From the IMG/VR virus record IMGVR_UViG_2859564202_000001: a stretch of DNA of 64,000 bases; one strand, 5' to 3'. This document shows positions 5,560-51,267 of the stretch, in pieces. The notes under the pieces were generated by a model that was given only the letters and a program-made list of their open reading frames with translations, was not told the origin of the DNA and did not search any database. The stretch's first letter is position 1; each line of letters opens with the position of its first letter. The translations under genes were made by a program, and so were the position numbers. This DNA comes from a virus (taxonomy: Duplodnaviria; Caudoviricetes).

Positions 5560-8142
5560 TTAGTCAATAGTACCTTCGGCATCTGCACCGGTCTCTGCAC
5601 CGGCCTCAGCATCATCTGGGAATCCAAGATCATCACCTGGGACCGTGATGCAGTCATTGCCGGTACCAGGGTTGCCGCCACCGCCAAAGGTTGTCGAAAT
5701 ACCAGTGTCCTTTTCGCCGATCCACCAGTTTCCGTTCTCACCGATGTGCGGGGTGAGACCATCCTTACCGTCAGTTCCGTTAGTACCGTTGGTGCCATCT
5801 CGTCCATGTGGAATGGTCACAGTGGAATGGTCACTGAATCGAATAGTGGTGAAACCAGGAGTCTCTTCAGTACCTATAACAGTGAGGCCCGATGCATTCG
5901 GTAGAGAATATGCCATTGGTGAACCTGTAGCGTAGAACACAACAGCACTATGTGGTGGAAGGGTGTAATCATATTCTTCACCATTGATCGTTGCAGTAAT
6001 GGTCTTGGGTTCATCACTAGTGTTGAAGACCACATCAGTGACACCCGCTACCGCCTCACCAACGGGGGTCGGGCTTGCAGAGACACCTGTATCGGTATCA
6101 CCGATCCACCAGTTACCGTTGTCGCCAATGTGTGGTGTGAGGCCATCCTCACCAGGTGTTCCAGTGCCACCCTGAGCTGGGATACCAGTATCCTTTTCAC
6201 CGATGTACCAGTTACCGTTGTCACCAATAACAGTGTGCGGGATTTCATATTCAAATTGATCAAGAATGATGATGGTGGCCTGGCCACCACCTGGATAACT
6301 CGATTCTCGGATCTCAATGTCCACATTACCGGAACCCTCGCCCGGAGCGCCCGTGTCACCAGTGTCACCCTTATCGCCCTTTGGACCCTGCGCCTTGACA
6401 CCGGTATTTTCACCATTGATGTACCAGTAGCCATTAATGATCTCAACGGTGTTAGCACCGTTGGTTCCATTTTCACCGTCTTGTCCATCGGCTCCGTTGG
6501 TGCCATTTTCACCAACTGCCTTGACACCGGTATTTTCACCATTGATGTACCAGTAGCCATTAATGATCTCAACGGTGTTAGCACCATCGGCTCCGTTGGC
6601 GCCATCCTGACCACGAGCAGGAACGCCGGTATCAACGATGCCGATCCACCAATTACCATTATCACCGATGCGTGGGGTGTCACCGTCTTTACCGTCATTG
6701 CCACGTGCAGCAGTACAGGTGTTGTTCTCACCGATCCACCAGTTACCATCTGGGCCGATGTACGGGGTCAGTCCGTCCTTACCGTCTTCGCCGGTATCTC
6801 CCTTGTCGCCCTTCTCACCCTTGTTGATGGTGATTTCAGTGCCGTTCGAGAACACCACAACAGTGTTGCCGTCCGCATCGAAACGGGTTTCGATGACCGT
6901 AATGGACTCGCCATCTGCGCCATTACTTCCATCTTCACCATCGGCGCCAGCGTCACCCTTATCACCCTTATTAATGGTAATAACAGTGCCATCGGAGAGC
7001 TCAACAAGAGTGTTGCCTTCAGCATCGTTGCTGGTGTTAACAACAGTAATTGATTCACCATCTGCGCCGTCTTCGCCATCGGCGCCAGCGTCACCCTTGT
7101 CGCCCTTCTCACCCTTGTTGATGGTCACATTGGAGCCATCGGAGAATTCGACAACAGTGTTGCCGTCCGCATCAACATAAGAGTTCTCCACAGTGATGCT
7201 GACTCCATCAGCACCGTCAGAGCCGTCAGCACCGTCCTTACCATCGGTACCCTTCTTTACAATGATCGTGGAACCATCGGAAAGCTCAACAACGGTGTCT
7301 CCATCATCGTTGATGTAGGTATCAGTTACGGTAAGGTCCTTACCGTCTTCGCCGTCCTTGCCGTCTTCTCCATCTTTACCGTCTTCACCCTTGTCGATAA
7401 CAATGGTGGAACCGTCAGAGAACTCAACAACAGTATTACCTTCATCGTCGCGGTAAGTATTAACAATGGTGATAGCAGCGCCGTCTTTACCATTGGTGAT
7501 GGTGATTTCAGAACCATCGGAAAAGACAACAATGGTATTGCCGTCATCATCAGTCTTAATCTCAGTAATGGTGATCGAGGTACCATCTTGACCATCAACA
7601 CCATTTTCACCATCAGTGCCACTGGAGCCACCCGCGAAGTCGAAGCCTTCCAGCCAGCAGTAGTCAACCAGTGCGATCAGGCCGGCAGTACCAGCAACAG
7701 CGCCGATAGCAGGGCCTGCAGTCTGGCCCACCTGTGCCGCCAGGTCATTCCATCCAGCCATGGTTCGTGCTGCTTCAGTGAGATCAATACCCTGCACAGC
7801 GTTCTGCTGTGGGCCGTGCACGCCGTTACCGAGGCCAATGTTGAGCGATTCAAGAGAGTTGTTGAACTGATTGCTGAGATCCTGCCCAATGCGCTGTGCG
7901 TCAGACTGAATCTGGGACACCATATGCTGGAATTCTGGCTGCTGAGACAGCAGACCAACACCCACTGCTGCGCCTGCAACAAGCGGTGCAGCAGCACAAA
8001 TGGCATCACGGGTGGAATCGGAGTTGGTAGTGTCATCCGCAACATCCTGTGCAGATGCCGCAGGAACAATAGACAGACCCAGACCAGCAACAGTCAGCGC
8101 GGTAATAGAACGCGCAGAATTCTTCTTCAAATTAAGAGACAA
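5560..8142 (-). CDS. Secreted collagen-like repeat surface protein
   Basis: Signal peptide (ASA-Q), GxD triplets, repeated DxxGNTVVxFSDG modules and TPxIGxNGNWWIG repeats. Confidence 0.85.
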   Translation of the reverse strand: MSLNLKKNSARSITALTVAGLGLSIVPAASAQDVADDTTNSDSTRDAICAAAPLVAGAAVGVGLLSQQPEFQHMVSQIQSDAQRIGQDLSNQFNNSLESLNIGLGNGVHGPQQNAVQGIDLTEAARTMAGWNDLAAQVGQTAGPAIGAVAGTAGLIALVDYCWLEGFDFAGGSSGTDGENGVDGQDGTSITITEIKTDDDGNTIVVFSDGSEITITNGKDGAAITIVNTYRDDEGNTVVEFSDGSTIVIDKGEDGKDGEDGKDGEDGKDLTVTDTYINDDGDTVVELSDGSTIIVKKGTDGKDGADGSDGADGVSITVENSYVDADGNTVVEFSDGSNVTINKGEKGDKGDAGADGEDGADGESITVVNTSNDAEGNTLVELSDGTVITINKGDKGDAGADGEDGSNGADGESITVIETRFDADGNTVVVFSNGTEITINKGEKGDKGDTGEDGKDGLTPYIGPDGNWWIGENNTCTAARGNDGKDGDTPRIGDNGNWWIGIVDTGVPARGQDGANGADGANTVEIINGYWYINGENTGVKAVGENGTNGADGQDGENGTNGANTVEIINGYWYINGENTGVKAQGPKGDKGDTGDTGAPGEGSGNVDIEIRESSYPGGGQATIIILDQFEYEIPHTVIGDNGNWYIGEKDTGIPAQGGTGTPGEDGLTPHIGDNGNWWIGDTDTGVSASPTPVGEAVAGVTDVVFNTSDEPKTITATINGEEYDYTLPPHSAVVFYATGSPMAYSLPNASGLTVIGTEETPGFTTIRFSDHSTVTIPHGRDGTNGTNGTDGKDGLTPHIGENGNWWIGEKDTGISTTFGGGGNPGTGNDCITVPGDDLGFPDDAEAGAETGADAEGTID

Positions 8143-8397
8143 GGTGAAACGCCTTTCATAAAAGGTAATAACATGCTGTAACTAGTTAAAAGATGAAAAC
8201 TTAATTATTATTTCCCATAAAGTAATTAATGACTTTTAAACTACTTTTAAAGATATACGTTATAGATAACTATATGCAACTAAACTATTATTTACTTATT
8301 AACTTCTTACATGTCCCCAGAAAACTAAAAAACCTTTAAGAAAATTTCTTAAAGGTTTTTCTTCATGCTGCTGTATTAATCCAGCATTACACTGGCG

Positions 8398-9513
8398 TTA
8401 ACCTGCGTTAACAAGCTCAGGGTCTTCTTCTACTTCGAGATCTGCATCAGTTTCAGTGTCGATCACACTATCGTCGTCACCATCAACCTTTTCACTCTGT
8501 TCAGATGATCCAAGCCCAGAAGAGCCAGTTGGCTTTTCTGCCGCCACGTCACCATCTGCGTTGTCATCGGCATCAATGTCGCCACAGAAATCATCAGCGA
8601 GCACCGACAGCACAGCAAGGCCGGTAGCACCAGAGATCAACAACCCTGCATCAATATCCTTGGTCGCGTTGTAGAGCCACTGATCAAACTGGGGGTTGAG
8701 GCTTGGAAGATTGAACTGTGCACGCACATCTTCAACAACACGTGGGATCGCCGGTGCCACAGCGTTAGCAATAGCACCTGCAGCAGGAATTGCTGCCAGC
8801 AGCAACATCTTCGGGTTCAGCAGACACTGTGCCAGCTCATCGGTGGCACCCTTAGCTGGCGCTGGGATAGTGACCTCAGAACCATCGGAGAACACAATGG
8901 TAATGGAACCATCGTCATTGGCAATCTGATCGACAATGGTCGCGTTAGCGCCGTTCTCACCATCCTTGCCATTTTCACCATCAGCACCATCCTGGCCGTC
9001 TGAGCCATCGTTGCCGTCCTTACCGTTAGCAACAACAAGCACAGAGCCATCAGAGAACGTAATGACGATATTGCCGTTGGCGTCAGTCGCAGTAGACACC
9101 ACAGTAGCGTCCTCGCCATCCTTGCCATCTTCACCATCCACACCGTCCTTAGCTGCAGGAATGGTGACGACGGTGCCATCAGAGAAGGTGAGCTTGACAT
9201 CACCATTGGACTCCGTAGCGACATCAACAATGGTTGCGTCCTTGCCGATCACACCATCTTGGCCATCGGTACCATCCTTGCCATCAACACCCGCCTTGAG
9301 GGTGACAAAAGTGCCGTCGGTGAAGTGGAAGGTGATGTCACCAGTCACTGGATCAACAACGGTGCGATCAAGGTTGACAACGTGAATCGGGGTACCAGCA
9401 CCTACCTGCTGAGCCGTAGCTGGTGCCGCACCAACAGCAGCAACACCAGAGACACCGACTGCAACAGCGACAGCAATGGATGCAAGACGACGAGAATTAA
9501 GCTTCAAAGACAT
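8398..9513 (-). CDS. Secreted collagen-like repeat protein with C-terminal Cys-flanked hydrophobic domain
   Basis: Signal peptide, GxDGxDG repeats, FSDG modules. Confidence 0.85.
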   Translation of the reverse strand: MSLKLNSRRLASIAVAVAVGVSGVAAVGAAPATAQQVGAGTPIHVVNLDRTVVDPVTGDITFHFTDGTFVTLKAGVDGKDGTDGQDGVIGKDATIVDVATESNGDVKLTFSDGTVVTIPAAKDGVDGEDGKDGEDATVVSTATDANGNIVITFSDGSVLVVANGKDGNDGSDGQDGADGENGKDGENGANATIVDQIANDDGSITIVFSDGSEVTIPAPAKGATDELAQCLLNPKMLLLAAIPAAGAIANAVAPAIPRVVEDVRAQFNLPSLNPQFDQWLYNATKDIDAGLLISGATGLAVLSVLADDFCGDIDADDNADGDVAAEKPTGSSGLGSSEQSEKVDGDDDSVIDTETDADLEVEEDPELVNAG

Positions 9514-9572
9514 GTGAATATTCCTTATCTATATAAAGGTGAGAAAAAAACTCAAAACAGGGAGTGAAAAAA

Positions 9573-11498
9573 CTACTTACTGGAACTAATGACGGAGCCG
9601 CCACCAAGACCGAACAGATTAAACAGCGGGAGAAGCAAATCAAGCAGCTTGGACAGCCAGTTTGTCGGCGTTGGCTTCGTGGTGATCTGTGAACCGTCCT
9701 CGTAGGTAATGGTCACTGAGCCGTTGTCGTTGGTAACTCGGGACACCTCTACCAGACCTTTACCGTCTGACCCGTCTACGCCATCTGTGCCATTGACTCC
9801 ATCTTTGCCGTCCTTACCGTCTGACCCATCAACACCGTTGCGCACAGTGAACTCAGTACCGTCAGAAAGAACATAGGTGATGTTGCCGTCCTCATCAGGG
9901 GTAGCAGATTCCAGCGTTAGGCCAGTACCATCAAGCCCGTCAAGACCATCTTTGCCGTCTTGACCAGCATCAAGAGTAAACGTAGTGCCATCGGACAAGG
10001 TGACAGTCACCGTGCCGTCAGCATTGTCAACAACATCAATGGCGACAACACCGTCTCGGCCGTCTGAGCCATCAGACCCATCGTCACCGTCCTTGCCGTC
10101 ATCAACAGAGGGGAGGTTGCCATCGCCATCGGTGATGTTGGGGCCAAACAAGCCATCACCGGAAAGCAGATCGTCTGCGTGGCGATGTTTGTAGAGCTCA
10201 CCCTCAGTGAAATAGTTATCCCTAGTGAACGCCCCCGCTGGTTCACCAACAGAACCTTGCACCTTATGTTCGAAGGTTTTACCAGGGCTAAATGGCTCTA
10301 GTGCTTCAATACCAGTCCAACTAAAGGAAATATCCGAAGGAATATTCTTAAACGTCGCTGTTGCTGTGGTCTTATCCGCTGAATACACAACGGTTGGTTC
10401 CCACGCAGCTACGTCGTACTCGGGAAATGCGGCAACAAATTCGTCATATTCAAATGAATTTTTGTAAGAATAGCTGATCCTCGTCGATGTTTCCTCTACC
10501 CGAGGAACTTCCGAGAAAACGTCGAAATCCTCAAATCCACCTCCGGAACGTTCGCGTAAAGTGGCTCCGTCTGCGGCTGTGAAATTAAGTATCACGTCGC
10601 GTGTGGTGGGTGTGGTATTGACAAGCGCACCCCGGAATCCAGCACCGTTGTTATTGCTAATGACAACATTGGCGTGCCCGACCACGACGCCAAGTGGAGC
10701 TGCGTATGCTAATGCGCCCATATCAACAGCTGGTGGTTGATTAATCTTCCAGTCTTGTTCACTTCGGAAATGCGACACGGTCTGCGTAGACTTAACCCAC
10801 GTGTGCTGGACAGTACTGATAATCCACGGGTGTCCAGCAACGCCGTAGCGGACTACCTTGTTCTCAACCTGACCCTCAGTCTTACCCACAGTCCAGTCTT
10901 GAATTGGTCGCTCACCCGTCTGCTGGGCGCTACTCACCCACCCGTACAGTTCCATATCAAGAGCTGCGGTGCGAGAAGTAGTGCCAGCATCCGAACTAAA
11001 GTTTGTCAACGTACCGCGCGTACCACCGTTGCTCACCAAAAGATCTGCGACACGAATACCTGCATCATTGCGTACAGGGACGGTGCGATCGTTTGAATTG
11101 AAAAACCGAAGTCCATCGCCGGTGAGATTAAAGACGTACTCATCCTCGGCAGTTGCTGAATCCGGGATCGAAAACTCCATCTGCAATCGCAGTTCACCCT
11201 TGGTGATGTCTCCTAGAAGCTCTTCACGCTTGTCGTTGTCACTGATACCCAGCTCAACCGGGTCAGAAAATGACAGCCCGTTCAACGTATAAGAAACACT
11301 GGTCACAATACTGTCCGGCAACGTCGCAGCAGACGCAGTTGCCATACCAAACTGTGCCACATGATCAGATGTCGCCACTGCCACACCGCCAATCGCCACA
11401 GTGGTGGCGAGCGCCAACGCAATAGGACGAGCAATCCGAGATCCCAGTACAAACTGAGGACGAACCCCTACCTCTCGACCCTGTTTATTAAAAGTCAT
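9573..11498 (-). CDS. Secreted adhesin-like protein with collagen-like repeats
   Basis: Signal peptide, beta-rich N-domain, GxD repeats, amphipathic C-terminus. Confidence 0.8.
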   Translation of the reverse strand: MTFNKQGREVGVRPQFVLGSRIARPIALALATTVAIGGVAVATSDHVAQFGMATASAATLPDSIVTSVSYTLNGLSFSDPVELGISDNDKREELLGDITKGELRLQMEFSIPDSATAEDEYVFNLTGDGLRFFNSNDRTVPVRNDAGIRVADLLVSNGGTRGTLTNFSSDAGTTSRTAALDMELYGWVSSAQQTGERPIQDWTVGKTEGQVENKVVRYGVAGHPWIISTVQHTWVKSTQTVSHFRSEQDWKINQPPAVDMGALAYAAPLGVVVGHANVVISNNNGAGFRGALVNTTPTTRDVILNFTAADGATLRERSGGGFEDFDVFSEVPRVEETSTRISYSYKNSFEYDEFVAAFPEYDVAAWEPTVVYSADKTTATATFKNIPSDISFSWTGIEALEPFSPGKTFEHKVQGSVGEPAGAFTRDNYFTEGELYKHRHADDLLSGDGLFGPNITDGDGNLPSVDDGKDGDDGSDGSDGRDGVVAIDVVDNADGTVTVTLSDGTTFTLDAGQDGKDGLDGLDGTGLTLESATPDEDGNITYVLSDGTEFTVRNGVDGSDGKDGKDGVNGTDGVDGSDGKGLVEVSRVTNDNGSVTITYEDGSQITTKPTPTNWLSKLLDLLLPLFNLFGLGGGSVISSSK

Positions 11499-11674
11499 AA
11501 AAAACCACCTTCATAAATGTAGTTAATTTACTGTAATGAAACTAAAGAACGTTTCATAGTAATTAACATAACACATGTATGAAATAATTGTGAATACTAA
11601 AGTTAATAGTTTCTTTATTACTATTATTAACATAATGGCCCCAGGGAAGGTGCTGGTCATACCGCCAAAAGAGC

Positions 11675-11696
11675 ACCGCAGCACAGCTGCGGTCGG
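11675..11696 (+). promoter_or_regulatory. Hairpin motif copy 1
   Basis: ACCG-CAGC-ACA-GCTG-CGGT-CGG, a compensatory variant without the bulge. Confidence 0.6.
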
Positions 11697-11748
11697 ACAC
11701 TAGTGCGCAGTACTACCTCTTACCCACCCCATATATAAGGAGTAAAAA

Positions 11749-12234
11749 ATGACTGCTCTACCCTGCCCACCAACACAGAAGCTGCTCTATGCACAGATGC
11801 GTGAAATTGCAGCCGAACTTACAGCCTGTGACGCTACTCGCGGACTCCATGCCGAAGTGGCTGCCGAATGGCTTAGTGACGCCATAACCGGCGAACCCAC
11901 CTCTATCGAGATTGACCCCCACCGCAACCTGTTCTACGCACTTAATGTTGAGCACCCGCGACTCCATGAACTCTTTGCCGGTTACGCTACACGCCTTGAT
12001 GAACTCGACCGCGCACCGCAGCAGTGTGAGTCGCGTCAATATTTTCTTGATTATGTCTGTGCTGACAACCCTTTTGGCTCAGACAAACCAGAGGGCATTA
12101 TCGTGCTGCTCGCTGATCACGTGCTGGCAGCAGATCCAGTGACAAACAAGCCGGCACTCAAATCAGAGGCATTCCCTACTGTCACAGACTATTGCCGCAC
12201 TCACTCTGCTAAACCAACAGACATTCTCATTTAA
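11749..12234 (+). CDS. Hypothetical protein
   Basis: AAGGAG RBS; 161-aa ORF. Confidence 0.75.
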   Translation: MTALPCPPTQKLLYAQMREIAAELTACDATRGLHAEVAAEWLSDAITGEPTSIEIDPHRNLFYALNVEHPRLHELFAGYATRLDELDRAPQQCESRQYFLDYVCADNPFGSDKPEGIIVLLADHVLAADPVTNKPALKSEAFPTVTDYCRTHSAKPTDILI

Positions 12235-12248
12235 GGATTTTAGTCACC

Positions 12249-12440
12249 ATGACGAAACACGACCATACTTACACAACCCCTGCAGAGCACTCAGATCCAG
12301 CTGATCAGCGCATTTTTCCGCTCGCTGAATCAGACATAGAAAAATTCGACATGCAGCTCGATCAGCCTGTCAACACCAAAGAGATGCAGGCTTTTCCGCA
12401 CGCCCCCACCATCTTTGGCACTGAGATTGTGTTCGATTAA
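12249..12440 (+). CDS. Small hypothetical protein
   Basis: AAGGA RBS; follows the previous gene closely. Confidence 0.55.
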   Translation: MTKHDHTYTTPAEHSDPADQRIFPLAESDIEKFDMQLDQPVNTKEMQAFPHAPTIFGTEIVFD

Positions 12441-12501
12441 CTACCACTGCTGCACACACACATACAACACCTCTCACACACAAACAAGAAAGGGTCACCC
12501 C

Positions 12502-12729
12502 ATGACCACCGTTCAAGTATCCACCCGCACTGTGCGCGAACACCGTTTTACTGTGCCAGTGGACTACGCTGTCGGCGCCACCATTTCAGAAATCTATGCT
12601 GCCTGTGCCATGGCCGAAAAGAAAGCCAACAACCTTGGGCTTAACACTACTAAGGACGATTGGGCACGAGTCACTGTCACTGATAATGCTGTTGTGTTCA
12701 TTGTCGAGAATGTTATCGGGAATACTTAG
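12502..12729 (+). CDS. Small hypothetical protein
   Basis: GAAAGGG RBS before MTTVQV. Confidence 0.65.
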   Translation: MTTVQVSTRTVREHRFTVPVDYAVGATISEIYAACAMAEKKANNLGLNTTKDDWARVTVTDNAVVFIVENVIGNT

Positions 12730-14510: not shown

Positions 14511-15110
14511 ATGCTTTCAATTTGCGCAAAAATTGGATATTCGACGACAATTGCAGAAGTGGAAATGAACTTCCGAAAGGGACAAACATATGGTATTTGC
14601 GGTGAAAACGGATCTGGAAAATCGACACTTCTTCGCACCCTGTGCGGGGAAATCCATCCAATTGACGGGTATGCAACTATAGATGACCAAAGTGTCACCG
14701 AACCAAGTTCTATCGGTAAAATTATAAAGATTTCTACCCCCGAATTCTATCCCGATATTTCAATTGGAGAGCACTTTAAGATACTGACTAAAACCACAAA
14801 GGTGGACTATGATGACGCCATTAAACGCTGGAATCTGGAAAAACTCCTTGAGAAATCACCTAATCGAGTATCGAGCGGGCAGCAACAACGCAGCTTTCTA
14901 GCTTTACAATTGGGGGTGAAATGCGATGTGATTGTCTTGGATGAGCCGGAGAGGCATTTAGATTCTTTCTGGATAAGAATCCTATCGGAGGAACTGAAAG
15001 ACCGAGCCAAAAGTGGTACGACTGTGATTTTAGCCAGTCATTCACAAGAGATTCTTAAAGTTTGTGACGAGGTAATCTCACTCGAAAGATATTTAAATGC
15101 AAATAAATAA
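14511..15110 (+). CDS. ABC transporter ATP-binding subunit (RiPP export/immunity)
   Basis: Walker A GENGSGKST, signature VSSGQQQR, Walker B VIVLDEP, H-loop ASH. Confidence 0.92.
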   Translation: MLSICAKIGYSTTIAEVEMNFRKGQTYGICGENGSGKSTLLRTLCGEIHPIDGYATIDDQSVTEPSSIGKIIKISTPEFYPDISIGEHFKILTKTTKVDYDDAIKRWNLEKLLEKSPNRVSSGQQQRSFLALQLGVKCDVIVLDEPERHLDSFWIRILSEELKDRAKSGTTVILASHSQEILKVCDEVISLERYLNANK

Positions 15111-16098
15111 AGTGATCAAATTTGCAATACTGTTGGCTGTTGTCTTAGGTATTTCGTTTTCAACGGTGTCGTGGGTTTTTGATCAATACAAATTGAATGC
15201 AAATGATTACTCCCCGATATCTTCATTTGTCTGGAATCTGATATTCATCATAGGTTTATCGACTCTAGTAGAAAAATTTCTACCGCTCCTATCAATCTCA
15301 AAACTAGAGTGGATATATCATGTGAGACCCTTAGGCCAATTGTCTTTTGGTCGGTTTAGCCCAATCTTGCAACTGAGTGTATTCGCTCTCTTTGGACTTC
15401 TTGTTGGTGCTGCGAATGGGCATTTTTGGATATGGCTCATGATCAGCCTCTTAGCTAGACTAGTCACAGGCCTTTTTAAGAGAAAATCAATTCCAAATCT
15501 TCTTTCTGCAGGTAGAAGAAAAATTTTGTCGGAAGCCAGCCTTAACGTTTTGGATTCTGCACTAGTCGCAGATAGCACAACAGTCGCTCATCTAAAATGG
15601 ATAGACCGACCCCCCACCGGAAACTACCTCATACTCACTTTTAGAAGATTTTTAAGAAGACCCCATATCGCTTTGACAATGCTAGTGGTCATCTCTTTCA
15701 CATTCTCTTTTTCCAATGTTTTTGGAAATTTTACCCCTTGCTTATTTTTCCTACTGTGGTCCATTTTAGGTGCCGATGTGGCGCGGTGCGCAGACTTCTC
15801 TAAGCTAAAAGGACCAAACCACCTTAAAGTCGTGACTCTTATTGTGCATGGGTTATTCGCGCTAGCGATCATGCTAATAATCACAGGGACAATCCAAATG
15901 CTGCCCTACGGGATTTTAATACTGCCAAGCATTCTTTGGACAGGAATAGTCAGAAGTCGAGCGAGGAGAGTAGATCAAATCACCTATATAGACAGCGGCG
16001 TTATAGGCCCAATTTCCCCAGAAATCATCAAGTTCTATTTATCAGGTTTACTACCGACTGTAGTAGTGTCAATTATTATTGTTTCCCTACTAAATTAA
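15097..16098 (+). CDS. Multi-pass membrane protein, ABC permease
   Basis: Many hydrophobic segments; overlaps the ATPase gene by 14 nt. Confidence 0.85.
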   Translation: MQINKVIKFAILLAVVLGISFSTVSWVFDQYKLNANDYSPISSFVWNLIFIIGLSTLVEKFLPLLSISKLEWIYHVRPLGQLSFGRFSPILQLSVFALFGLLVGAANGHFWIWLMISLLARLVTGLFKRKSIPNLLSAGRRKILSEASLNVLDSALVADSTTVAHLKWIDRPPTGNYLILTFRRFLRRPHIALTMLVVISFTFSFSNVFGNFTPCLFFLLWSILGADVARCADFSKLKGPNHLKVVTLIVHGLFALAIMLIITGTIQMLPYGILILPSILWTGIVRSRARRVDQITYIDSGVIGPISPEIIKFYLSGLLPTVVVSIIIVSLLN

Positions 16099-16216
16099 CC
16101 CCTAAAGGGGTAATCCACTACCAGTAATTTCTACTTTCAAATACAAATCCTTTGAGCCATGTTAATTTGATGATGCCAATACATGGCAACCCCAACTCAA
16201 GACAGGAAAACCAAAA

Positions 16217-16372
16217 ATGGTTAATATCAATCGATACACATCTACTAACTCCATTGCATCAGACGCTGGGAAACCAGCAGACGGTCGCACCACACCAACT
16301 ACTGTTTCTTCTGTAATTTGCACTGAAACTATCGCCTACACTGTCACTGCTACCATCACAATCGGTTGCTAG
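16217..16372 (+). CDS. Class V lanthipeptide precursor, 51 aa (not in ORF track)
   Basis: MVNINRYTSTNSIASDAGKPADGR-TTPTTVSSVICTETIAYTVTATITIGC*; AGGA RBS; Thr/Ser-rich core with C-terminal Cys; ends 10 nt before the kinase gene. Confidence 0.88.
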   Translation: MVNINRYTSTNSIASDAGKPADGRTTPTTVSSVICTETIAYTVTATITIGC

Positions 16373-16382
16373 TAGGCTACAA

Positions 16383-17492
16383 ATGAACCGCCCCCTTCAA
16401 AGTCAAAATTTTTCAATAACCAGCGAATGGGCAAATGCCACGTTCAACGATATCGAAGACTCTTTGGAGGGGTCTTTTGACATCGAACCAGGCCAATACA
16501 TTGGACGCGGAGAATACTTCGTAGCTACTTCTGGAACGGGTTCCAAAAAGTTTATCAAGGTGGTTTTGGGTGACGGTATCGATAGCGAACTAAATCGTCG
16601 CATCGAAGGTGAAATTCTTGCAAGTAGTCTCCATCTTCCATCCACAGACCTAATCTCTCCTGTCGTAATTCAGTATGTGAAAGAGTCTTCTAATTTTCCC
16701 GGTGACTTCTACATCGTGTCCGACTTCAAAGACGACACAGAAACTTTAGAGCTATCTAAGGCTTCTCTACCCCTCACTGACTTAGCCAAGATCGGAGCGT
16801 TTCTCTTTCGTTTGGAATCTGTAACAGTTCCCCCTCAAAATCCTGCAAGGCGAGCAATGGATGTTTTGGATGGACTTTCTCTTCTTGCAAATAAAGGCAA
16901 CATTGAAACAGGCGCACAATTAACAAAAGGAACTATACAAGCTCTTGAAATCATTAATCAAGAAGCGACCAACATCGAGAATGCACTTGAAAAAGTAACT
17001 AAAGTAGGATCACGGAAGTTTTTCTCGCATGGAGATCTTAAATTTTCTCAGTTCTTAATTAATGGTGAAACCGGAAAGATTTTCCTATGTGACTGGGAAG
17101 AATGCGGTAGTGCACATTTCGCAAATGACCTATGTTTTCTCGCAGGTGATTTGTTCTATAGCACAATTCGGGAACTGGTGGATACCAACATCAAAAACAT
17201 TAAAGGCTCCTCGATCATTCAGGAAGCCTACGATAATGCAACGCTTGAGGCTGTATCAAAAGTAAATGCAATATTAACTGGCTATTCCTCAGAGAGGGGT
17301 TACTCTCTCACCTCGGACGAAAAACGAATCATTAGTATCAGAATCGGATTGGCTGGTCTATTTCGACTTTACACTGTGAGCGCTAAATCTAATGAGTTAC
17401 GCCCGCGCGAATTAGCCTTAGCCTCCATCGGAATGCAAATTACTTTAGGTCAAGCACCCAATCTGGTGTTTACAGATAGCAAGGTGGTTTAA
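16383..17492 (+). CDS. APH-like phosphotransferase (LanK-type kinase of a split dehydratase)
   Basis: HGDLKFSQFL and CDWEE motifs. Confidence 0.85.
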   Translation: MNRPLQSQNFSITSEWANATFNDIEDSLEGSFDIEPGQYIGRGEYFVATSGTGSKKFIKVVLGDGIDSELNRRIEGEILASSLHLPSTDLISPVVIQYVKESSNFPGDFYIVSDFKDDTETLELSKASLPLTDLAKIGAFLFRLESVTVPPQNPARRAMDVLDGLSLLANKGNIETGAQLTKGTIQALEIINQEATNIENALEKVTKVGSRKFFSHGDLKFSQFLINGETGKIFLCDWEECGSAHFANDLCFLAGDLFYSTIRELVDTNIKNIKGSSIIQEAYDNATLEAVSKVNAILTGYSSERGYSLTSDEKRIISIRIGLAGLFRLYTVSAKSNELRPRELALASIGMQITLGQAPNLVFTDSKVV

Positions 17493-18293
17493 GTGAGGAA
17501 TTTGCACGAAACGATAGACAAGATCAAAAACTCAATGGTCTTTTTAAATGATCAAACCTTTACGATACCACCGTATACAGGGCATCCAGAAACAGAAAAC
17601 GTCCATGTAACTTCGCTGGAAGCCAATTCGGTACTGGCTAGTTATATTTATTCTCAATATCATGCCCGAGCAACAGAAGTAATTCCTCTTACAACCAAGC
17701 TTGACATAGTTCGCTTTCTCAGAGCTGATCCATATCTCATGGGCCTTTCGGGAGATCCGAATCAAGAACAAGCGATACCGAAAATGTCATTAGTCCGATC
17801 GCCTGGATTCGTCCACAGTTTTGGAAATCGTAAGTGGGTTCAACCAAAAAAATCAATAGGCAGAATTTACATGTCCGCGAAAAACGCGGTAGAGCGAACC
17901 GAAATATTTTTAGCTACTTTACAAATCGCTGAGAATAGCAATCTAATATTTCAGGGGAAAACTAGTTGGAACACATCCCTCCTGCGGACTGATGATATTG
18001 TATTCTACTTTCCGTTGGAATCTCATTTCTCGGAAGCACAAAGGCTGATCAAAAAATTTTTACCCTTTCGATCAGATGACGGCTTAGTTGAATCATTCTT
18101 TACTTCCTATTTGGCACCAGGTGTGAGTAAAGCTGTTGAAGTCCCAACTGCTAAGAACAATGGGCTCAGTTTTGGTATGGAATGGTCCACCATTTGCGCC
18201 CAACTAATAATCGAAGAATTTTCAGGAAAATCCGTCACGATCGCAGAAAAACTATCCGAATGGGGTATTCCTCAGAAGGAGGCCCACGCATAA
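17493..18293 (+). CDS. HopA1-like phospho-Ser/Thr lyase (LanY-type)
   Basis: GRIY, RTDDIVFY and LAPGVSKAVE...SFG motifs; abuts the kinase stop codon. Confidence 0.75.
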   Translation: MRNLHETIDKIKNSMVFLNDQTFTIPPYTGHPETENVHVTSLEANSVLASYIYSQYHARATEVIPLTTKLDIVRFLRADPYLMGLSGDPNQEQAIPKMSLVRSPGFVHSFGNRKWVQPKKSIGRIYMSAKNAVERTEIFLATLQIAENSNLIFQGKTSWNTSLLRTDDIVFYFPLESHFSEAQRLIKKFLPFRSDDGLVESFFTSYLAPGVSKAVEVPTAKNNGLSFGMEWSTICAQLIIEEFSGKSVTIAEKLSEWGIPQKEAHA

Positions 18294-18853
18294 TGACCAA
18301 AGTTACGAATGTGTCTTGGTTAGTAACAGGTTCAATGTCGGCCCTATCAATACCGGGTCTAATTTTCTCACTTCGCTCATCACATCCTAACCTTAATTTC
18401 ACTCCCTATCTAACACAAAGCGCAAGTCGAATCGTCACTATGACCAGTATGGCCACGCTAAGTGGAGTGACTCCTAGAAATAGTGACTGGGGGTCAGAAC
18501 CAGAGGCTACACCCAGCCACATTCAAATCGAATCAGAGTCAGATGCATATCTGATTGCCCCAGCGACCCTTGATTTTCTAGCTCGCTTTGCGCGTTATGA
18601 TTGTTCGACCCCTTTCTCCCTTGCTCTTCAATGTACGAAAAAGCCAATTCTCGTAGCACCGTCCTTGCCGCCTGGGGGGAAAGATTCAATAGCATATAAG
18701 TCACTAAGCATGGACCTCTTAAAGTGGGAGAATTTACGGTTATTGAGTCCTATCGAAACTAAAAGTGCTTCTTCCCCAAACGCATCGTCATCCGGCTTCG
18801 GATCTGCCACACGATTAATCGAATTCATGTTAGAAAACCTACAGGGTACTTAG
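18293..18853 (+). CDS. HFCD flavoprotein, peptidyl-Cys decarboxylase (LanD-type)
   Basis: VTGS, catalytic His (PSHIQ), APAT and APSLP; AAGGAGG RBS with TAATG stop/start overlap. Confidence 0.88.
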   Translation: MTKVTNVSWLVTGSMSALSIPGLIFSLRSSHPNLNFTPYLTQSASRIVTMTSMATLSGVTPRNSDWGSEPEATPSHIQIESESDAYLIAPATLDFLARFARYDCSTPFSLALQCTKKPILVAPSLPPGGKDSIAYKSLSMDLLKWENLRLLSPIETKSASSPNASSSGFGSATRLIEFMLENLQGT

Positions 18854-18854
18854 A

Positions 18855-19721
18855 GTGAAAAAAGTTTTTCAAAATGAAATGCGCACAATTTGGCAAAGAG
18901 ATTCGGCCAATGATCAAGAACCGTGGTCCGAGATCCGTCGGTACTCTCCTGCAAATGGAAAACTTCCTCGCTTACCCGAGCAACTTCCTCAAGAAAACAG
19001 TTCGATCTATTGGGGTCAATCGGAAGATTTCACATTTAAAATCGGCACTTTGATTGATGAATCATTCTGGAGTGGTATTAACAAAAAAGCAATCAGTATG
19101 ACCGATGATGACAAGAGTAAGCTTATTTTGAACTACTCAGAGAAAGCTATTAGTGCTTTCTCTGAGTTCTCTACTAGCGCCCACTGTCGATATCTGCCGG
19201 TTTTTGCACAGTACATCCATCATCTACCAAGAGATCTTCGAGAATTAAAAGAACTCCTGTTGGATAGCCATGTGCGCTGTGTATTTGAGGACGCTAACCT
19301 ATCAGTCTCCTCAATATTCAAAGACATCCAGTCTTTTGAAGATTACTCTAAAAAGTCTCATCGAATAGTTCATGGTTGTTTTCGATTTAGAAATATAGGT
19401 TTCTCAGGCAATGGCAAACTGCTCGTAATCTCCGGGGATGATCTAATCTACGGGTCTGAAATATTTATACAAGCTGCGATGCTGGCTGATCTATTTGAGC
19501 TAAGTTCCTCCAAAGTCGTTGCTGTAAACAAATCAATGTTCGTTATGTATCAAACCTTCACTCAAAACAAGGACAGTTTTTATGTAAATAAATTAAACAG
19601 ATTTACCTTCCTCTACCTAATCTCCCACTATGTACAATTTCTTTTTACCTACAAAAAATCTTTTCCTAAGAGACTTCTCTCGGAGGCAACGCTACTGAGA
19701 TTCAACGGGCCTGTCATTTAG
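18855..19721 (+). CDS. Degenerate phosphotransferase/pseudokinase (LanX/TvaE-type cyclisation factor)
   Basis: IVHGCFRFRNI is an HGD motif that has lost the catalytic Asp; last gene of the operon. Confidence 0.65.
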   Translation: MKKVFQNEMRTIWQRDSANDQEPWSEIRRYSPANGKLPRLPEQLPQENSSIYWGQSEDFTFKIGTLIDESFWSGINKKAISMTDDDKSKLILNYSEKAISAFSEFSTSAHCRYLPVFAQYIHHLPRDLRELKELLLDSHVRCVFEDANLSVSSIFKDIQSFEDYSKKSHRIVHGCFRFRNIGFSGNGKLLVISGDDLIYGSEIFIQAAMLADLFELSSSKVVAVNKSMFVMYQTFTQNKDSFYVNKLNRFTFLYLISHYVQFLFTYKKSFPKRLLSEATLLRFNGPVI

Positions 19722-33044: not shown

Positions 33045-33221
33045 ATTGAGAATCAACTATGCGACAAGTCAACTTGCATACCAGTATCCGAGCACATCCA
33101 CCCCCGAAAAAATTAGGTAAAGCTTGCCTATTTAAGAAGAACTGCTATAAGATCATCCATACATGCAGAGCACAGCTTTCACACATAGACATCACTGCAC
33201 ATTTATCTAATGGGAGACTCA

Positions 33222-34217
33222 ATGACAGTTGCACACAAACGAAGTCTGACATGGATCAAGAGACTATCTGCGACTACATTTGCAGCTTTTCTTGGCATTC
33301 AGCTTGTGACCCCCGCTCACTCAATTGAAAACACGACGCAGATTCCAGAAAGCGAATTGCACAACCTCGGGCTCACAGACGAAGAAATTCAAGAATTCAA
33401 TCAATATCTCATTGACGAGTCACTCTTTCAAGAGACTGTAGAAACCTCTCCGATCGTAGTCAGCGACAATGAAGATGCAGCCCAAGATCCCGGTTTCGGC
33501 CTTTTCACCACAAATCCTGTGAAACACACAGATGAGCACATTGGCGCTCTATACTTCTCCGACCTACCAGGTATTTCCAATCTTACGTGCACTGCCAACT
33601 ACATCGGTGGAAAATTCTGGACCACAGCACATCATTGTGTTGAAGGCCGCAGTCGCTTCGTCGGCTTCATCGAGCAGTCGGACGGACAATATGCAGGCAT
33701 TGAGCATGTTTACACAAAGTCAAGTGACTACGATATTGCCCTCATTAAAGTGGGATCTGGAATTGACGCAGAACAGTTCAGCCTCACTCGATCACGCCCT
33801 GCGGTTGGAAAAATGCTGGAAGTCGTTGGGTTTGCAGTTGTGAACCCATTCTCCTCTAGAGCAACAATGGAAGTCACCAACTCAAACACAGTCGCGAACT
33901 ATCCTATGAGCAACCTGTACTACAAAGACGTATTCTCGGCTAAACCCGCAGGATCATTCCCTTATGTCATTTCCGGAGGTGATTCCGGCGCAGCTGTTTG
34001 GTCGGGTGAAACCATGTACGGCATTGCTAGTGGCTCTAACGGCAGCACTAAAAACCTAGCAGCAAATGTTGGACCGCACGTCTCTTGGATCGAACAAACG
34101 ATGCAAAACAATAGCAATTCCTCTCCCTATGAAATTTTGCAAGCGTTCCGAGGCGGCCTTGCAACGTCTTACCCCAAATATAATCAAATTAGAGACCTAG
34201 TCGACTCAAGTAGTTAA
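33222..34217 (+). CDS. Secreted trypsin-like serine protease
   Basis: TAHHC, DIALIK and GDSG catalytic triad motifs; signal peptide. Confidence 0.88.
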   Translation: MTVAHKRSLTWIKRLSATTFAAFLGIQLVTPAHSIENTTQIPESELHNLGLTDEEIQEFNQYLIDESLFQETVETSPIVVSDNEDAAQDPGFGLFTTNPVKHTDEHIGALYFSDLPGISNLTCTANYIGGKFWTTAHHCVEGRSRFVGFIEQSDGQYAGIEHVYTKSSDYDIALIKVGSGIDAEQFSLTRSRPAVGKMLEVVGFAVVNPFSSRATMEVTNSNTVANYPMSNLYYKDVFSAKPAGSFPYVISGGDSGAAVWSGETMYGIASGSNGSTKNLAANVGPHVSWIEQTMQNNSNSSPYEILQAFRGGLATSYPKYNQIRDLVDSSS

Positions 34218-42846: not shown

Positions 42847-45051
42847 TCAATCGACTATAGAATCTGCGATACTGTAGCCCCCTAATCGTTCTCGAGTGAA
42901 ATCACTTCTTCCAGTCTCCAGTGCATATGCGACAACTTTTCGCTTCCCTTCCCAGCTAAAATCCGTGAACTGTATCTTACCTAGTTCTACATCTACTTCA
43001 GACTTGGTTATAGCCCGTAGAGAATCAGGTACGTACCGTGAAAACAGACTATGCTGAAAAGAATCTATCCATGCACCACCGCTTGGTCCCTGTCGCGAAG
43101 AATACACAGTCGTTAAGAAAAGCACTCCAATATCTATCACATCAAACTGATGTTCCTCTATACCACTTTGCAGAGACTTCAGCACTGAAGAAAAATTCGA
43201 GCTTTTCGCCAAAATACCAAGCGAATATGGACCTAAATCCCAATCTGAGGGGTCCTGATTCTTCAATACACTTAAAATTCTAGCTTCGGTCTTTATATTA
43301 ACTTTACGAAAAAGCTCAAGGCCACTTACATCATTACCACAGGCTCTAGCCCTTTCCCCCACCTGGTTTAACCAGAAAGCAGCCTCATTAAGCGTCATCT
43401 CAGAAAAGAATTTCTCATAGAGTTGTTCCACTGGTAATTGAGGCAATGCACCAAGAATCGAGCACGCATGGGAATACAGGTCACTGAATATGCCGCTCAT
43501 ACGCACTTGACGACCTTTATCATGCATACCATTAGCAGCGGTGAATAACACCTCAACTGCCATGTGCCTAACACCCTCTCCATCAAGTCGATCAATTGCT
43601 AGAGGAAGCTTTTTCATCACTGATGCCACCATGTCATTGTCATCGGAGTTAATTAAATCGACGAAACCCATAGCATCGTCCGCATTAGATAGATACTTAT
43701 CCAACTGTTCATCACTTATGACATGTCCAGGTCTTTGAAACATGAGGTACGTGTCAAAATAAACTTCCGTCGAGATCCCCCTCTCACGATGCATTCTCGT
43801 ACTAGGGTGATCCGAAAGACGTGGGAAAAGGAACAAAAGCATGGTCTTTAAAAGATCCATCTGCTCGTTGTTCATCCCCTCACATAATTGCTTTTCCCAA
43901 CCGGGTTTCTGCGAGCCTGTCGTTCGACCTCCTTGAAGCAATACTTCCTTCGCTCGAGAAAGACGTTTATACACAGACGGAAAAACAATTCGAATGGTCG
44001 CAAGTATTGTGAGATCAACGCCGTTAACTTCACCTGATCCATATATCCGAGTCCAGTTGGTTAGTAGAGCAGCAAAACGGTGCAACAGCCTCGGCGTGAC
44101 CAGAGTCTTTTCCCAGACATCGAACATTCTCGACTTCACTAGTGCAAAGTCTTCAGGATCACCCGATAGCGAAACACCCTGGAAAAGCTTGTCAAATAAT
44201 GCACTGAGCTCTTTCTCTATTTGAAATGATGTCAGAGGCGGAACATCGAAAGGATACTGCACGATTTTCTCCATGAAACGCAAAGCATCATCTTCGCTAC
44301 CACCTACAGCTGTCGATCTGGCTAGCGTCGTTAACAGTGATTCTTCTTCATAAACCAAAAGATAATTCACCTGCGGGAATCGTCCAAGCAAGCGTATTAC
44401 TTTCATTAACAGCGCCAATTCATCAGTATGGAGGCGATCAATATCATCGACGACAATGAGAATTCGCTTGTTCAGATCTTTAAAATGGTTCGCAGCACGT
44501 GTATACAGCGTTGGCCACGAATCTTGCTCCTGTTTCCATGTCTTATATACAGCGTTTGCAGCATCTACTCCTTTTGAGAGCGCAAGTGCTTCTAGGACAC
44601 CAAACCCTCCGACCCCACCTGCAATTGACCCAATCGTGCTAAAGGTTTTCTGCAGAACAGTTTTGATCTTTTGGCCGGTCTTATCATCAGGTACCGTCCC
44701 AACGATTACTCGGTAAAACTCCTCAATCAAAGATTGCGGGTCAGAGGCCACCCACGGGTTGAAATCAACGATTGTCCATTTTTCGTTCGATAGAGATTCT
44801 TCCGAGCGAATCAAATTAACAAGAGATGTCTTACCACTGCCCCACTGACCAGTAAGACTGAAAACAGTGCTCGCTCCCCAAGGTGCCACATCGCAGATTA
44901 TATTTGCCAGCTGGGCTGAATACGCAGAACGCTCGAAACGATCCTCAGAGATCTTAGTAATAGGCAAGTCTCGACCAGATACTGAATCTCCATCAGTTTT
45001 TACCGTGTTGTTTTTTGCCGCATCTGAAAATGGGGTAAACAGTCCGCTCAT
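42847..45051 (-). CDS. KAP family P-loop NTPase
   Basis: GQWGSGKTS, FNPW, IVVDDIDR, EKIVQYPF and TPR motifs. Confidence 0.9.
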   Translation of the reverse strand: MSGLFTPFSDAAKNNTVKTDGDSVSGRDLPITKISEDRFERSAYSAQLANIICDVAPWGASTVFSLTGQWGSGKTSLVNLIRSEESLSNEKWTIVDFNPWVASDPQSLIEEFYRVIVGTVPDDKTGQKIKTVLQKTFSTIGSIAGGVGGFGVLEALALSKGVDAANAVYKTWKQEQDSWPTLYTRAANHFKDLNKRILIVVDDIDRLHTDELALLMKVIRLLGRFPQVNYLLVYEEESLLTTLARSTAVGGSEDDALRFMEKIVQYPFDVPPLTSFQIEKELSALFDKLFQGVSLSGDPEDFALVKSRMFDVWEKTLVTPRLLHRFAALLTNWTRIYGSGEVNGVDLTILATIRIVFPSVYKRLSRAKEVLLQGGRTTGSQKPGWEKQLCEGMNNEQMDLLKTMLLFLFPRLSDHPSTRMHRERGISTEVYFDTYLMFQRPGHVISDEQLDKYLSNADDAMGFVDLINSDDNDMVASVMKKLPLAIDRLDGEGVRHMAVEVLFTAANGMHDKGRQVRMSGIFSDLYSHACSILGALPQLPVEQLYEKFFSEMTLNEAAFWLNQVGERARACGNDVSGLELFRKVNIKTEARILSVLKNQDPSDWDLGPYSLGILAKSSNFSSVLKSLQSGIEEHQFDVIDIGVLFLTTVYSSRQGPSGGAWIDSFQHSLFSRYVPDSLRAITKSEVDVELGKIQFTDFSWEGKRKVVAYALETGRSDFTRERLGGYSIADSIVD

Positions 45052-45296
45052 TTCTAGCACTGTACCGTGCTAAATCTTGGCACATGCAGCAATATCGGTG
45101 GGACACATCATCCATCGCTGTGTGCTAGAACCGCCGTATGTTAATAAGGCCTACTACGCCCCTGCAGAGATTCTAGTTCTCCTTCTTAAAACGGATATAC
45201 CATCCAACTCTTAAGTCGCCGTATACATCGACTTTTCGGCTTCATATGAGATGCTATTTACCTACTTTTCCAGTGGTGTGTCATAAGATCCGAAGC

Positions 45297-48416: not shown

Positions 48417-49313
48417 TCAGGAAGCAGATCTCAGGATAGCAGGACCGCGCTCCTCAAACACGACCGGAGCCAGATATCTACACCAGGAATGCCGGCGAAC
48501 CGTGTTGTAACGGGTACACCAGCGGAAGACGTCCCGGCGACAGCACAATTGATTTTCAAAGGTCTTGGAATCCTGCAGGACTTCCCGCTTCATCGCGGCA
48601 TTGAAAGACTCCGCCAAAGCGTTGTCAGCACTGGTGCCAATTGATCCCATCGACTGCCTGATCCCTAGTTTCTTACACGTCTCCTGAAACGCATGAGACG
48701 TGTAAACGCTGCCGTGGTCGGAGTGAAAAATCGCACCTTTGAGGTTTCCACGCTGGTCTTTAGCCATGAGCAGCGCGTCCTGGACCAAGCTCGTGCGCAT
48801 GTGATCTGCGATAGAAAAGCCCACCAACCTGCGGGAGTAACAGTCAATGACCGTGGCCAGGTACATATTCGACCCATCCTGAATTGGCAGATAGGTGATA
48901 TCCCCGACATAGAGCTGGTTCGGCTTGTCAGCGGTGAACTTCCGGCCGACAAGGTCAGGGAACACTGTCTTGGTTTTGTCCGGCACGGTGGTGGTGACCT
49001 TGCGTTTCTTTGTGTATCCGAACAGCTTCAACGATCGCATGATCCGGGCAACCCGCTTGTGGTTCGCAAGGTCATGGCCGATCTGGTCTTTGAGTTCAGC
49101 CGCGATTCGTTTGGCCCCATAACAGCCACTGTGAGTGGTGAATACAGTCTTGACCTGGACCCCAAGAATAGCGTCGCTGAGCAGGCGTTTTTCACGCGTG
49201 AAGGCGGTGCTTTTCCATTTGTAATATGAGGAACGATTGAGCTTCAACACGTCACATATCCGCTTAACCGAGTAGGTCTTTCGAGCGTCATCAACGAATC
49301 GGAAGCGGATCAC
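48417..49313 (-). CDS. IS3 transposase OrfB (DDE)
   Basis: GDITY, HSDHGS and DNALAESF motifs. Confidence 0.95.
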   Translation of the reverse strand: MIRFRFVDDARKTYSVKRICDVLKLNRSSYYKWKSTAFTREKRLLSDAILGVQVKTVFTTHSGCYGAKRIAAELKDQIGHDLANHKRVARIMRSLKLFGYTKKRKVTTTVPDKTKTVFPDLVGRKFTADKPNQLYVGDITYLPIQDGSNMYLATVIDCYSRRLVGFSIADHMRTSLVQDALLMAKDQRGNLKGAIFHSDHGSVYTSHAFQETCKKLGIRQSMGSIGTSADNALAESFNAAMKREVLQDSKTFENQLCCRRDVFRWCTRYNTVRRHSWCRYLAPVVFEERGPAILRSAS

Positions 49314-50970: not shown

Positions 50971-51267
50971 ATGCCACGCAAGACCTACACAGAGGAGTTC
51001 AAGCGCGACGCTGTCGCGCTCTACGAGAACTCCGCCGGCACCTCGATCCAGAAGATCGCCAATGATCTCGGAATCAACCGAATGACCCTTAAAAACTGGA
51101 TTACTAAATACGGGGCCAACTCAACTCCACATGGCGCTAACACGGCCACCGCGCTGTCCGAAGCTGAACGGATCCGCCAACTTGAAAAGGAAAATGCACT
51201 CCTCCGCGAAGAGCGTGACATCCTGCGGAAAGCGGCCAAATATTTCGCGGAAGAGACGAACTGGTGA
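50971..51267 (+). CDS. IS3 transposase OrfA
   Basis: Identical to 49310-49606. Confidence 0.95.
   Translation: MPRKTYTEEFKRDAVALYENSAGTSIQKIANDLGINRMTLKNWITKYGANSTPHGANTATALSEAERIRQLEKENALLREERDILRKAAKYFAEETNW

Follow-up and report, generated by a model that had tools for sequence, protein, structure and literature searches.

Kintamdin, a β-bithionin from Streptomyces sp. RK44, needs four proteins for its formation, namely the kinase KinD, the HopA1 lyase KinC, the inactive kinase homologue KinH and the flavoprotein KinI (PMC9415263). In kintamdin Cys11 is joined to the aminovinyl unit in a bis-thioether (MAbi) and Ser7 is turned into a β-enamino acid, and Cys11 is required even for the decarboxylation (PMC9415263). 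KinA-like precursors have been defined by the pattern S-S/T-x-x-C-Xn-T-x4-C with a Thr-rich start, i.e. S7-S8-C11-T22-C27 in a 27-residue core, and they are 'always' accompanied by the M16 metallopeptidase genes kinE and kinF (PMC9415263). The same four enzyme types without LanC form rosin A1, in which a lanthionine (Lan) links Ser6 and Cys10 and an aminovinyl-methylcysteine (AviMeCys) links Thr20 and Cys25. Here we describe a seven-gene operon at 14511-19721 of a viral DNA stretch of 64,000 nucleotides (IMG/VR record IMGVR_UViG_2859564202_000001; in the following the window), which is located inside the CGP3 prophage region of Corynebacterium glutamicum. From sequence comparisons and structure models we consider it, with a probability of roughly 0.87, to be a complete minimal cluster for a kintamdin-like (β-bithionin) or class Va lanthipeptide-type RiPP (a peptide made on the ribosome and modified after translation), carried by CGP3 as a cargo of low guanine-cytosine (GC) content.

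Results and Discussion

The operon consists of seven open reading frames (ORFs) arranged head to tail on the + strand, which are listed here with the length of their products in amino acids (aa) and their spacing in nucleotides (nt):

14511-15110, + strand: ATP-binding cassette (ABC) ATPase, 199 aa, PF00005 (ABC_tran)
15097-16098, + strand: membrane permease partner, 333 aa, overlapping the ATPase gene by 14 nt, without Pfam family
16217-16372, + strand: precursor peptide, 51 aa, ORF with AGGA-type ribosome binding site and double stop
16383-17492, + strand: APH-type kinase, 369 aa, beginning 10 nt past the precursor double stop
17493-18293, + strand: predicted HopA1-fold lyase, 266 aa, with its first base directly after the kinase stop
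18293-18853, + strand: predicted HFCD flavoprotein, 186 aa, likely from ATG 18293 with a 1-nt overlap with the HopA1 stop
18855-19721, + strand: kinase-fold non-kinase, 288 aa (280 aa if from Met9), beginning two bases after the flavoprotein stop

For the flavoprotein ATG 18293 is most likely the true start. The original prediction, made from the DNA letters alone, had described a compact, low-GC, same-strand cluster of seven genes, and all of its coordinates, the abutting or overlapping genes and the GC profile (0.41-0.445 over 14-20 kb vs about 0.48-0.52 in both flanks) were borne out.

The third gene, which is mostly unannotated, encodes a 24-aa leader ending with Gly-Arg and the 27-aa core TTPTTVSSVICTETIAYTVTATITIGC, in which four Thr are found within residues 1-5 and the pattern S7-S8-x-x-C11...T22-x4-C27 runs to the terminal Cys. 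Seven distinct homologous precursors, each encoded directly upstream of a kinase gene in other loci, could be aligned readily and share invariant R6, Y7, T8, I13, G23, T25, T26, P27, S31, S32 and C35 as well as T44, T46, G50 and C51 toward the C-terminus, with M1 kept too; every ring-forming residue is among the invariant ones, and the residue after G23 is always Arg or Lys (Gly-Lys in C. rouxii). The precursors are 56-69% identical across the loci vs 31-53% for the enzymes, a pattern that is expected for a substrate under selection. The leaders of the Corynebacterium peptides carry the motif (I/F)(N/D)-R-Y-T-S/T...I-A, and in an alignment with a canonical class V precursor the part Y-T/A-S/T...I-A can be seen in both. 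Pfam gave no leader family match for the window precursor, which is uninformative as the canonical class V precursor is likewise unmatched. A profile of the Corynebacterium precursors resulted in chance-level matches only in 401 genomes, and in a large protein collection it retrieved Corynebacterium peptides only and no Streptomyces KinA-like peptides. The assignment of a Thr-rich peptide ending in Cys as the precursor, already made from the sequence, is supported by the ribosome binding site, the position and the conservation in other loci.

The 369-aa protein downstream matches Pfam APH (1.9e-4) with the motif HGDLK...DWE, the NCBIfam model NF038156 for LxmK (2e-20, 73 bits, model positions 22-336/347, under the equivalog cut-off) and LxmK itself in the PDB (9dk1_A, 1e-4). 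The residues R42, K59, H216-G217-D218, Q223 and D237 do not vary among seven aligned homologues, and R42/K59/D218/Q223/D237 are spaced as in LxmK, whose catalytic and ATP/Mg residues have been described in the rosin paper as Arg49, Lys66, Asp221, Gln226 and Asp241. The protein is predicted to be an active Ser/Thr kinase of the LanK/LxmK/KinD type.

For the 266-aa protein the match to HopA1 (PF17914) reaches 35.1 bits at a cut-off of 22.7, and its sequence also matches LxmY (9dk1_B, 1e-5). A Foldseek search with its AlphaFold2 model (mean predicted local distance difference test, pLDDT, 84.5) found LxmY first (9dk2_B, E 3e-11, template modelling score 0.65), followed by the HopA1 effectors 4rsx and 4rsw from Pseudomonas and then by class III lyase domains and OspF/SpvC. 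The original prediction had been made to depend on a HopA1 fold of 17493-18293, and both the PF17914 score above the cut-off and LxmY as the top fold match agree with this fold, so that the protein is predicted to be a HopA1-fold phospho-Ser/Thr lyase of the LanY/LxmY/KinC type. When the HopA1 protein was used in a word-indexed search for homologues, the query alone came back, and a class-level HopA1 profile search, dominated by a canonical class V sequence in the alignment, led to LxmA-type clusters and to no closer relatives.

The flavoprotein shows 39.5 bits to PF02441 (Flavoprotein; cut-off 22.7) and has the RiPP decarboxylase CypD (NF033753, 2.7e-16) as its best NCBIfam match. A profile of six homologues matched the CypD structure 6jdd in the PDB with 3e-17, the PATLD motif being common to both. 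The Corynebacterium flavoproteins carry PPGG, and thereby a Pro-Gly (PG) segment as in CypD, where other HFCD proteins have PxMN, and the catalytic His76 is invariant. We therefore assign it, on the basis of its sequence, as a predicted HFCD peptidyl-cysteine oxidative decarboxylase of the CypD/LanD/KinI type. In databases it is presumably annotated as a phosphopantothenoylcysteine decarboxylase. That it is no coenzyme A enzyme, as had been suspected, is supported at the sequence level by a score of 52.7 bits against the CoaBC model, far under the cut-off of 219.7, and by a genuine CoaBC (381 bits) encoded at 1.70 Mb of the nearest genome, about 95 kb from the operon. A profile scan of genome contigs with the flavoprotein alignment gave generic flavoproteins from unrelated metagenome-assembled genomes only.

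No Pfam family was found for the 288-aa protein, but features of a protein language model group it with actinobacterial APH-like proteins, and its structure predicted with ten homologues (pLDDT 92.6, predicted template modelling score 0.91) is a confident kinase fold with LxmK and TvaE as tied best structural matches. In all ten sequences the catalytic-loop motif is HGC and not HGD, with a Cys replacing the catalytic Asp, and Arg177, Arg179, Asn180, Asp195-Asp196, His258 and Gln261 are invariant as well; for a remnant with a structural role only, so much conservation around HGC would not be required. The literature describes RosX, LxmX, KinH and TvaE as kinase folds that lack the catalytic base; of these, RosX is an AviMeCys cyclase in vitro and binds the decarboxylase. 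Sequence and model together make the 288-aa protein a probable member of the LanX/TvaE/KinH type and thus a probable Avi(Me)Cys cyclase or scaffold. A contig scan with its alignment confirmed nothing further. With this protein the whole enzyme set of the original prediction, i.e. kinase, HopA1 lyase, pseudokinase and HFCD decarboxylase, is supported by family, fold or motif evidence, and none of the three tests for its refutation, carried out at the level of the sequence, spoke against it.

The first two genes encode a probable transporter for export or self-protection. The ATPase at 14511-15110 matches PF00005 with 5.2e-23, and its best NCBIfam model is a lantibiotic-protection ABC ATPase (TIGR03740, 89 bits, far under the cut-off). 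An ABC_tran ATPase takes the equivalent operon position in a metagenome-derived contig and in C. diphtheriae; the permease is 34% identical to that of the metagenome contig over 316 aa (E 9e-69), and in C. diphtheriae a 345-aa gene product takes its position.

We then compared the operon with the characterised systems. Like the kintamdin core, the window core is a 27-mer with S7, S8, C11, T22 and C27 at identical positions, and both share I10, V19-T20-A21-T22 and a Thr-rich N-terminus, the kintamdin sequence being known from NMR fragments and primers. Both have the four essential enzyme types, the Kin enzymes being compared by type only, and in the window these are encoded directly downstream of the precursor. 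Unlike the kintamdin cluster, the operon is without the M16 peptidases KinE/KinF, the F420H2-dependent reductase KinJ and the methyltransferase KinO, its host is Corynebacterium and its carrier a prophage or island. The core also lacks the Ser at 13, 16 and 18, which are the D-Ala sites in kintamdin, and this is consistent with the absence of reductase and methyltransferase genes.

With the class Va systems, namely lexapeptide (LxmK/Y/X/D), rosin (RosK/Y/X/D) and cacaoidin, the operon shares the minimal set of LanK, LanY, LanD and LanX without LanC, the C-terminal T-x4-C and a leader whose Y-T-S/T...I-A motif resembles that of canonical class V leaders, and LxmK/LxmY are the best solved matches for three of the operon proteins. 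In terms of the class Va cluster criteria given in PMC12291118, we found LanK (PF01636) with intact catalytic residues, LanY (PF17914), LanD and a LanX without the catalytic Asp, and LanC/LANC_like had no match in the seven operon products or the flanking ORFs. In contrast, identity in structural alignments is only 8-19%, and CypD is the nearest match to the decarboxylase. In the LanX-type protein Asn180 and Asp195 are retained and an invariant Cys takes the place of the catalytic Asp, and the operon is without tailoring or peptidase genes. The claim of a class V cluster forming aminovinyl-cysteine (AviCys) holds for the enzymes, and with kintamdin as the closest characterised relative the combination of lanthionine and AviCys is only one of two products to be considered. 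The further claim that the product is antimicrobial finds no support in these relatives, as kintamdin is cytotoxic against cancer cell lines but has weak or no activity on bacteria (PMC9415263) and rosin A1 is not antibacterial.

Starting from lyase relatives, homologues of the 288-aa protein and the precursor profile, we found the order precursor-kinase-lyase-flavoprotein-LanX in at least seven independent loci from at least five Corynebacterium lineages and in unrelated mobile contexts, and it is therefore no chance arrangement. A metagenome-derived contig contains the enzyme block together with both transporter genes. In C. timonense and in the Corynebacterium record CP047047.1 the block adjoins insertion sequence (IS) elements and parAB, Corynebacterium sp. 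KPL2850 carries the same enzyme block, and two more assemblies have it beside a resolvase gene in one case and beside Abi and ParA-like genes in the other. The C. timonense precursor is 69% identical to that of the window; IS elements are located upstream at the position of the transporter, and no transporter gene is called there. In many C. diphtheriae genomes all seven genes are present on an integrase-bearing island, which in the three assemblies listed below also has IS elements and Abi_2-like, VbhA-like and ParA-like genes, the integrase being of phage type, and the index lists the C. diphtheriae precursor for 122 blocks of the collection. C. rouxii has a decayed copy, with 195 aa left of the kinase and with the lyase broken into fragments of 103 aa and 90 aa:

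C. diphtheriae CP003215.1, CP003209.1 and one draft assembly, about 7310-12534: complete operon with 51-aa precursor and 293-aa LanX-type protein
C. rouxii, 6566-9932 of its contig, - strand: decayed copy with precursor, flavoprotein and a 254-aa LanX-type ORF present

Any HopA1 domain was found in 3 of 201 species genomes of the genus, and the profile of the 288-aa protein matched 1 of 401 genomes of the family, which is the nearest genome. A fourth lyase relative belongs to a textbook class V cluster, whose precursor leader has Y-A/T-T/S...E-I-A like the Corynebacterium peptides. Its occurrence on diverse mobile elements, in C. glutamicum, C. diphtheriae, C. timonense and a nasal Corynebacterium, suggests that the trait is traded between corynebacteria. 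As a RiPP operon, the locus is real and intact, and it is both conserved and mobile.

Two further loci came up during these searches. C. timonense shows a second and much stronger HopA1 match (118 bits) at 1707958-1708467 elsewhere in its genome, within a 366-aa frame, which may be a separate kinase-lyase RiPP locus. An 11-kb metagenome contig combines the class II gene LanM and a small peptide of its own with a kinase/HopA1 pair of class V, which is accompanied by an LxmA-like precursor and by an O-methyltransferase.

A biosynthesis can be proposed from the characterised homologues, with the enzymes assigned from sequence and fold. The 51-aa precursor would be bound via its leader with the (I/F)(N/D)-R-Y-T-S/T...I-A motif, after which Ser and Thr residues in the core would be phosphorylated by the kinase, and elimination of the phosphate by the HopA1-fold lyase would give dehydroalanine (Dha) and dehydrobutyrine (Dhb) at up to 12 sites. 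The CypD-like flavoprotein would decarboxylate the C-terminal Cys27 oxidatively to the enethiol, which the HGC kinase-fold protein together with the decarboxylase could direct onto Dhb22, resulting in a six-residue AviMeCys-type ring. Cys11 might then react either with Dha7/8 to a lanthionine as in rosin or with the aminovinyl unit to MAbi, Ser7 becoming a β-enamino acid, as in kintamdin. ATPase and permease would serve for peptide export or producer protection, and the leader ending with Gly-Arg would be cut off by a protease encoded outside the operon, as the operon itself has no peptidase gene. A trypsin-domain protein is encoded 14 kb downstream (33210-34217, + strand, PF00089, 3e-10), which is probably the secreted serine protease cg1930; as the leaders end with Gly-Arg or Gly-Lys, one may speculate that it removes them.

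For the mature peptide the canonical class Va topology, with a Ser7/8-Cys11 lanthionine and a Thr22-Cys27 AviMeCys as in rosin A1 and without bis-thioether or β-enamino acid, is a possibility to be taken seriously even if we do not favour it. It would differ from our preferred reading in the last cyclisation step only. The same four kinds of enzyme produce the rosin A1 rings in the absence of LanC, the spacings S7/S8-C11 and T22-C27 suit them equally well, and 151 of the 851 class Va clusters mined in the rosin paper are likewise without a methyltransferase (no Corynebacterium is among the 151). On the other hand, the core is positionally homologous to KinA past the ring residues (27-mer, I10, V19-T20-A21-T22, Thr-rich N-terminus), the C. 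timonense homologue has been retrieved by BlastP with KinA, and in kintamdin the decarboxylation depends on Cys11. Because this homology reaches beyond the ring residues, we lean to the kintamdin topology. Membership in another Avi(Me)Cys class is very improbable. With the thioamitides (TvaC/D/E/F, TsaC/D/E/F) the operon has the module of kinase, HopA1 lyase, inactive kinase and HFCD protein for AviCys in common, and TvaE is a tied best fold match of the 288-aa protein; with the linaridin cypemycin it shares the Thr-rich core with a C-terminal Cys and a flavoprotein whose closest solved and curated relative is CypD, including PATLD and the PG segment. However, YcaO/TfuA had no match in the operon or its flanks, in line with the earlier statement that this is not a thioamitide, and the core peptide is unrelated to those of thioamitides. 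The linaridins for their part have no kinase and HopA1 lyase for dehydration. There is no room for CypH/CypL-type genes with all seven ORFs assigned, and the flanking ORFs gave no such matches, so that both classes were rejected. Even harder to believe is that no RiPP cluster exists at all, with the flavoprotein being a spare CoaC and the kinases acting on a small molecule, e.g. an antibiotic. The old annotations as protein kinase and protein phosphatase, and that of the flavoprotein as a phosphopantothenoylcysteine decarboxylase, would fit this, but the spare CoaC was rejected from the CoaBC scores given above, and a conserved gene for a Cys-terminated peptide is found directly upstream in every locus.

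A different question is whether the operon is an intact but functionally silent or incomplete cargo, which is silenced, has no dedicated leader peptidase and yields no mature peptide; we regard this as rather unlikely. CGP3 is bound and silenced by CgpS, the operon is without a protease gene, and relatives do decay, as seen from the fragmented kinase and lyase in C. rouxii and the IS elements at the transporter position in C. timonense. However, all seven ORFs of the operon are full length compared to their homologues, the precursor is under visible constraint, and many C. diphtheriae assemblies have retained all seven genes. A transcriptome and proteome study on pH lists cg1904 as ABC permease, cg1905 as 'putative protein kinase' and cg1906 as 'putative protein phosphatase' (and cg1930 as secreted serine protease), and from gene order and annotation we infer that cg1903-cg1908 are the ORFs of the operon. 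There, transcript levels of cg1905 and cg1906 were found to depend on pH, and at pH 7.5 both proteins were detected with low peptide counts; provided that the cg numbers belong to these ORFs, the operon is not silenced completely. Several observations nevertheless count against our assignment as a complete kintamdin-like or class Va-type cluster. Expression may be very low under CgpS silencing. A HMMER search with the lyase gave only three relatives at E<=1e-3 in 1.84 billion representatives (39%, 38% and 28% identity), and the enzymes are much diverged, with all NCBIfam scores under the equivalog cut-offs. No M16 peptidase was found in the operon, the examined flanking ORFs or the other Corynebacterium loci, and no reductase or methyltransferase in the operon. 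Moreover, both Mg-site residues of a kinase, Asn and Asp, are still present in the 288-aa protein, which differs in this from the published description of RosX and may have a residual nucleotide-dependent role.

The predicted location in a prophage is supported and can be narrowed to CGP3. The locus is found at about 1.795 Mb in the nearest genome, with which the window has 100% of its sampled k-mers in common, and the search with HopA1 gave a match in C. glutamicum too. The gene content of the window agrees with the published CGP3 gene list, which includes alpAC (cg1890/91), the transposases cg1950/51 and the primase cg1959. Among the other genes or gene products of the window are:

actin-like partition protein
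collagen-repeat tail-fibre-like proteins
D5-type primase
RecJ-like nuclease
two identical IS copies
GntR regulator
trypsin-like protease

A scan for promoters and terminators gave fewer matches than in shuffled sequence, and a repeat scan found no flanking repeats that would mark the edges of the cargo. The two IS copies are present in inverted orientation at 48417-49313 (- strand) and 51264-52160 (+ strand) with identical Pfam scores (rve, HTH_21, rve_3) and are probably the cg1950/51 transposases, for which the strongest CgpS signals have been reported (PMC5137423). A P-loop NTPase of the KAP family (42847-45060, - strand, 7e-85) is divergent from the gene of a 582-aa protein without family match (45246-46994, + strand), and the two may represent a defence-type pair.

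The operon was not reported in three published surveys based on genome mining. For 30 C. glutamicum genomes analysed with antiSMASH only terpene, NAPAA (non-alpha poly-amino acid), betalactone, T1PKS (type I polyketide synthase), RiPP-like and class IV lanthipeptide clusters were listed, a 2026 study with antiSMASH and BAGEL found only lactococcin-like RiPPs in 36 strains, and a survey of biosynthetic gene clusters in actinobacterial prophages, which included CGP3-bearing genomes, has no C. glutamicum entry in its cluster table. Our literature search for class V lanthipeptides or aminovinyl compounds with Corynebacterium found nothing on the operon locus. The table of KinA BlastP homologues has one Corynebacterium entry, a 59-aa peptide from C. 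timonense with 44/61%, and C. glutamicum is absent from it (PMC9415263); the listed peptide is almost certainly encoded by the C. timonense gene that we found independently. The original description of the system as undescribed in Corynebacterium thus does not hold for the genus, as the C. timonense homologue has been listed since 2022, but stands for the C. glutamicum member. The kintamdin-type family has already been published in outline, but as far as our searches reach neither this member nor its location in a prophage nor its distribution across Corynebacterium has been.

Conclusion

In summary we have identified a concrete RiPP cluster that was missed by standard genome-mining pipelines. 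It is also conceivable, if improbable, that the Corynebacterium operons are a distinct, mobile and minimal kintamdin branch, in which the four enzymes alone build the bis-thioether and β-enamino scaffold, the Cys of the HGC motif takes part in the cyclisation and the peptide serves the mobile element; it would then act in strain competition or in protection against other phages and not as a classical antibiotic. The cluster is found in a genetically tractable and non-pathogenic industrial model, C. glutamicum ATCC 13032, of which a prophage-free derivative is described in the cited literature and could be used directly as negative control. With four enzymes and no tailoring genes the operon would be a compact natural system for studying how a kinase-fold LanX/KinH protein and an HFCD decarboxylase construct Avi(Me)Cys or bis-thioether rings.

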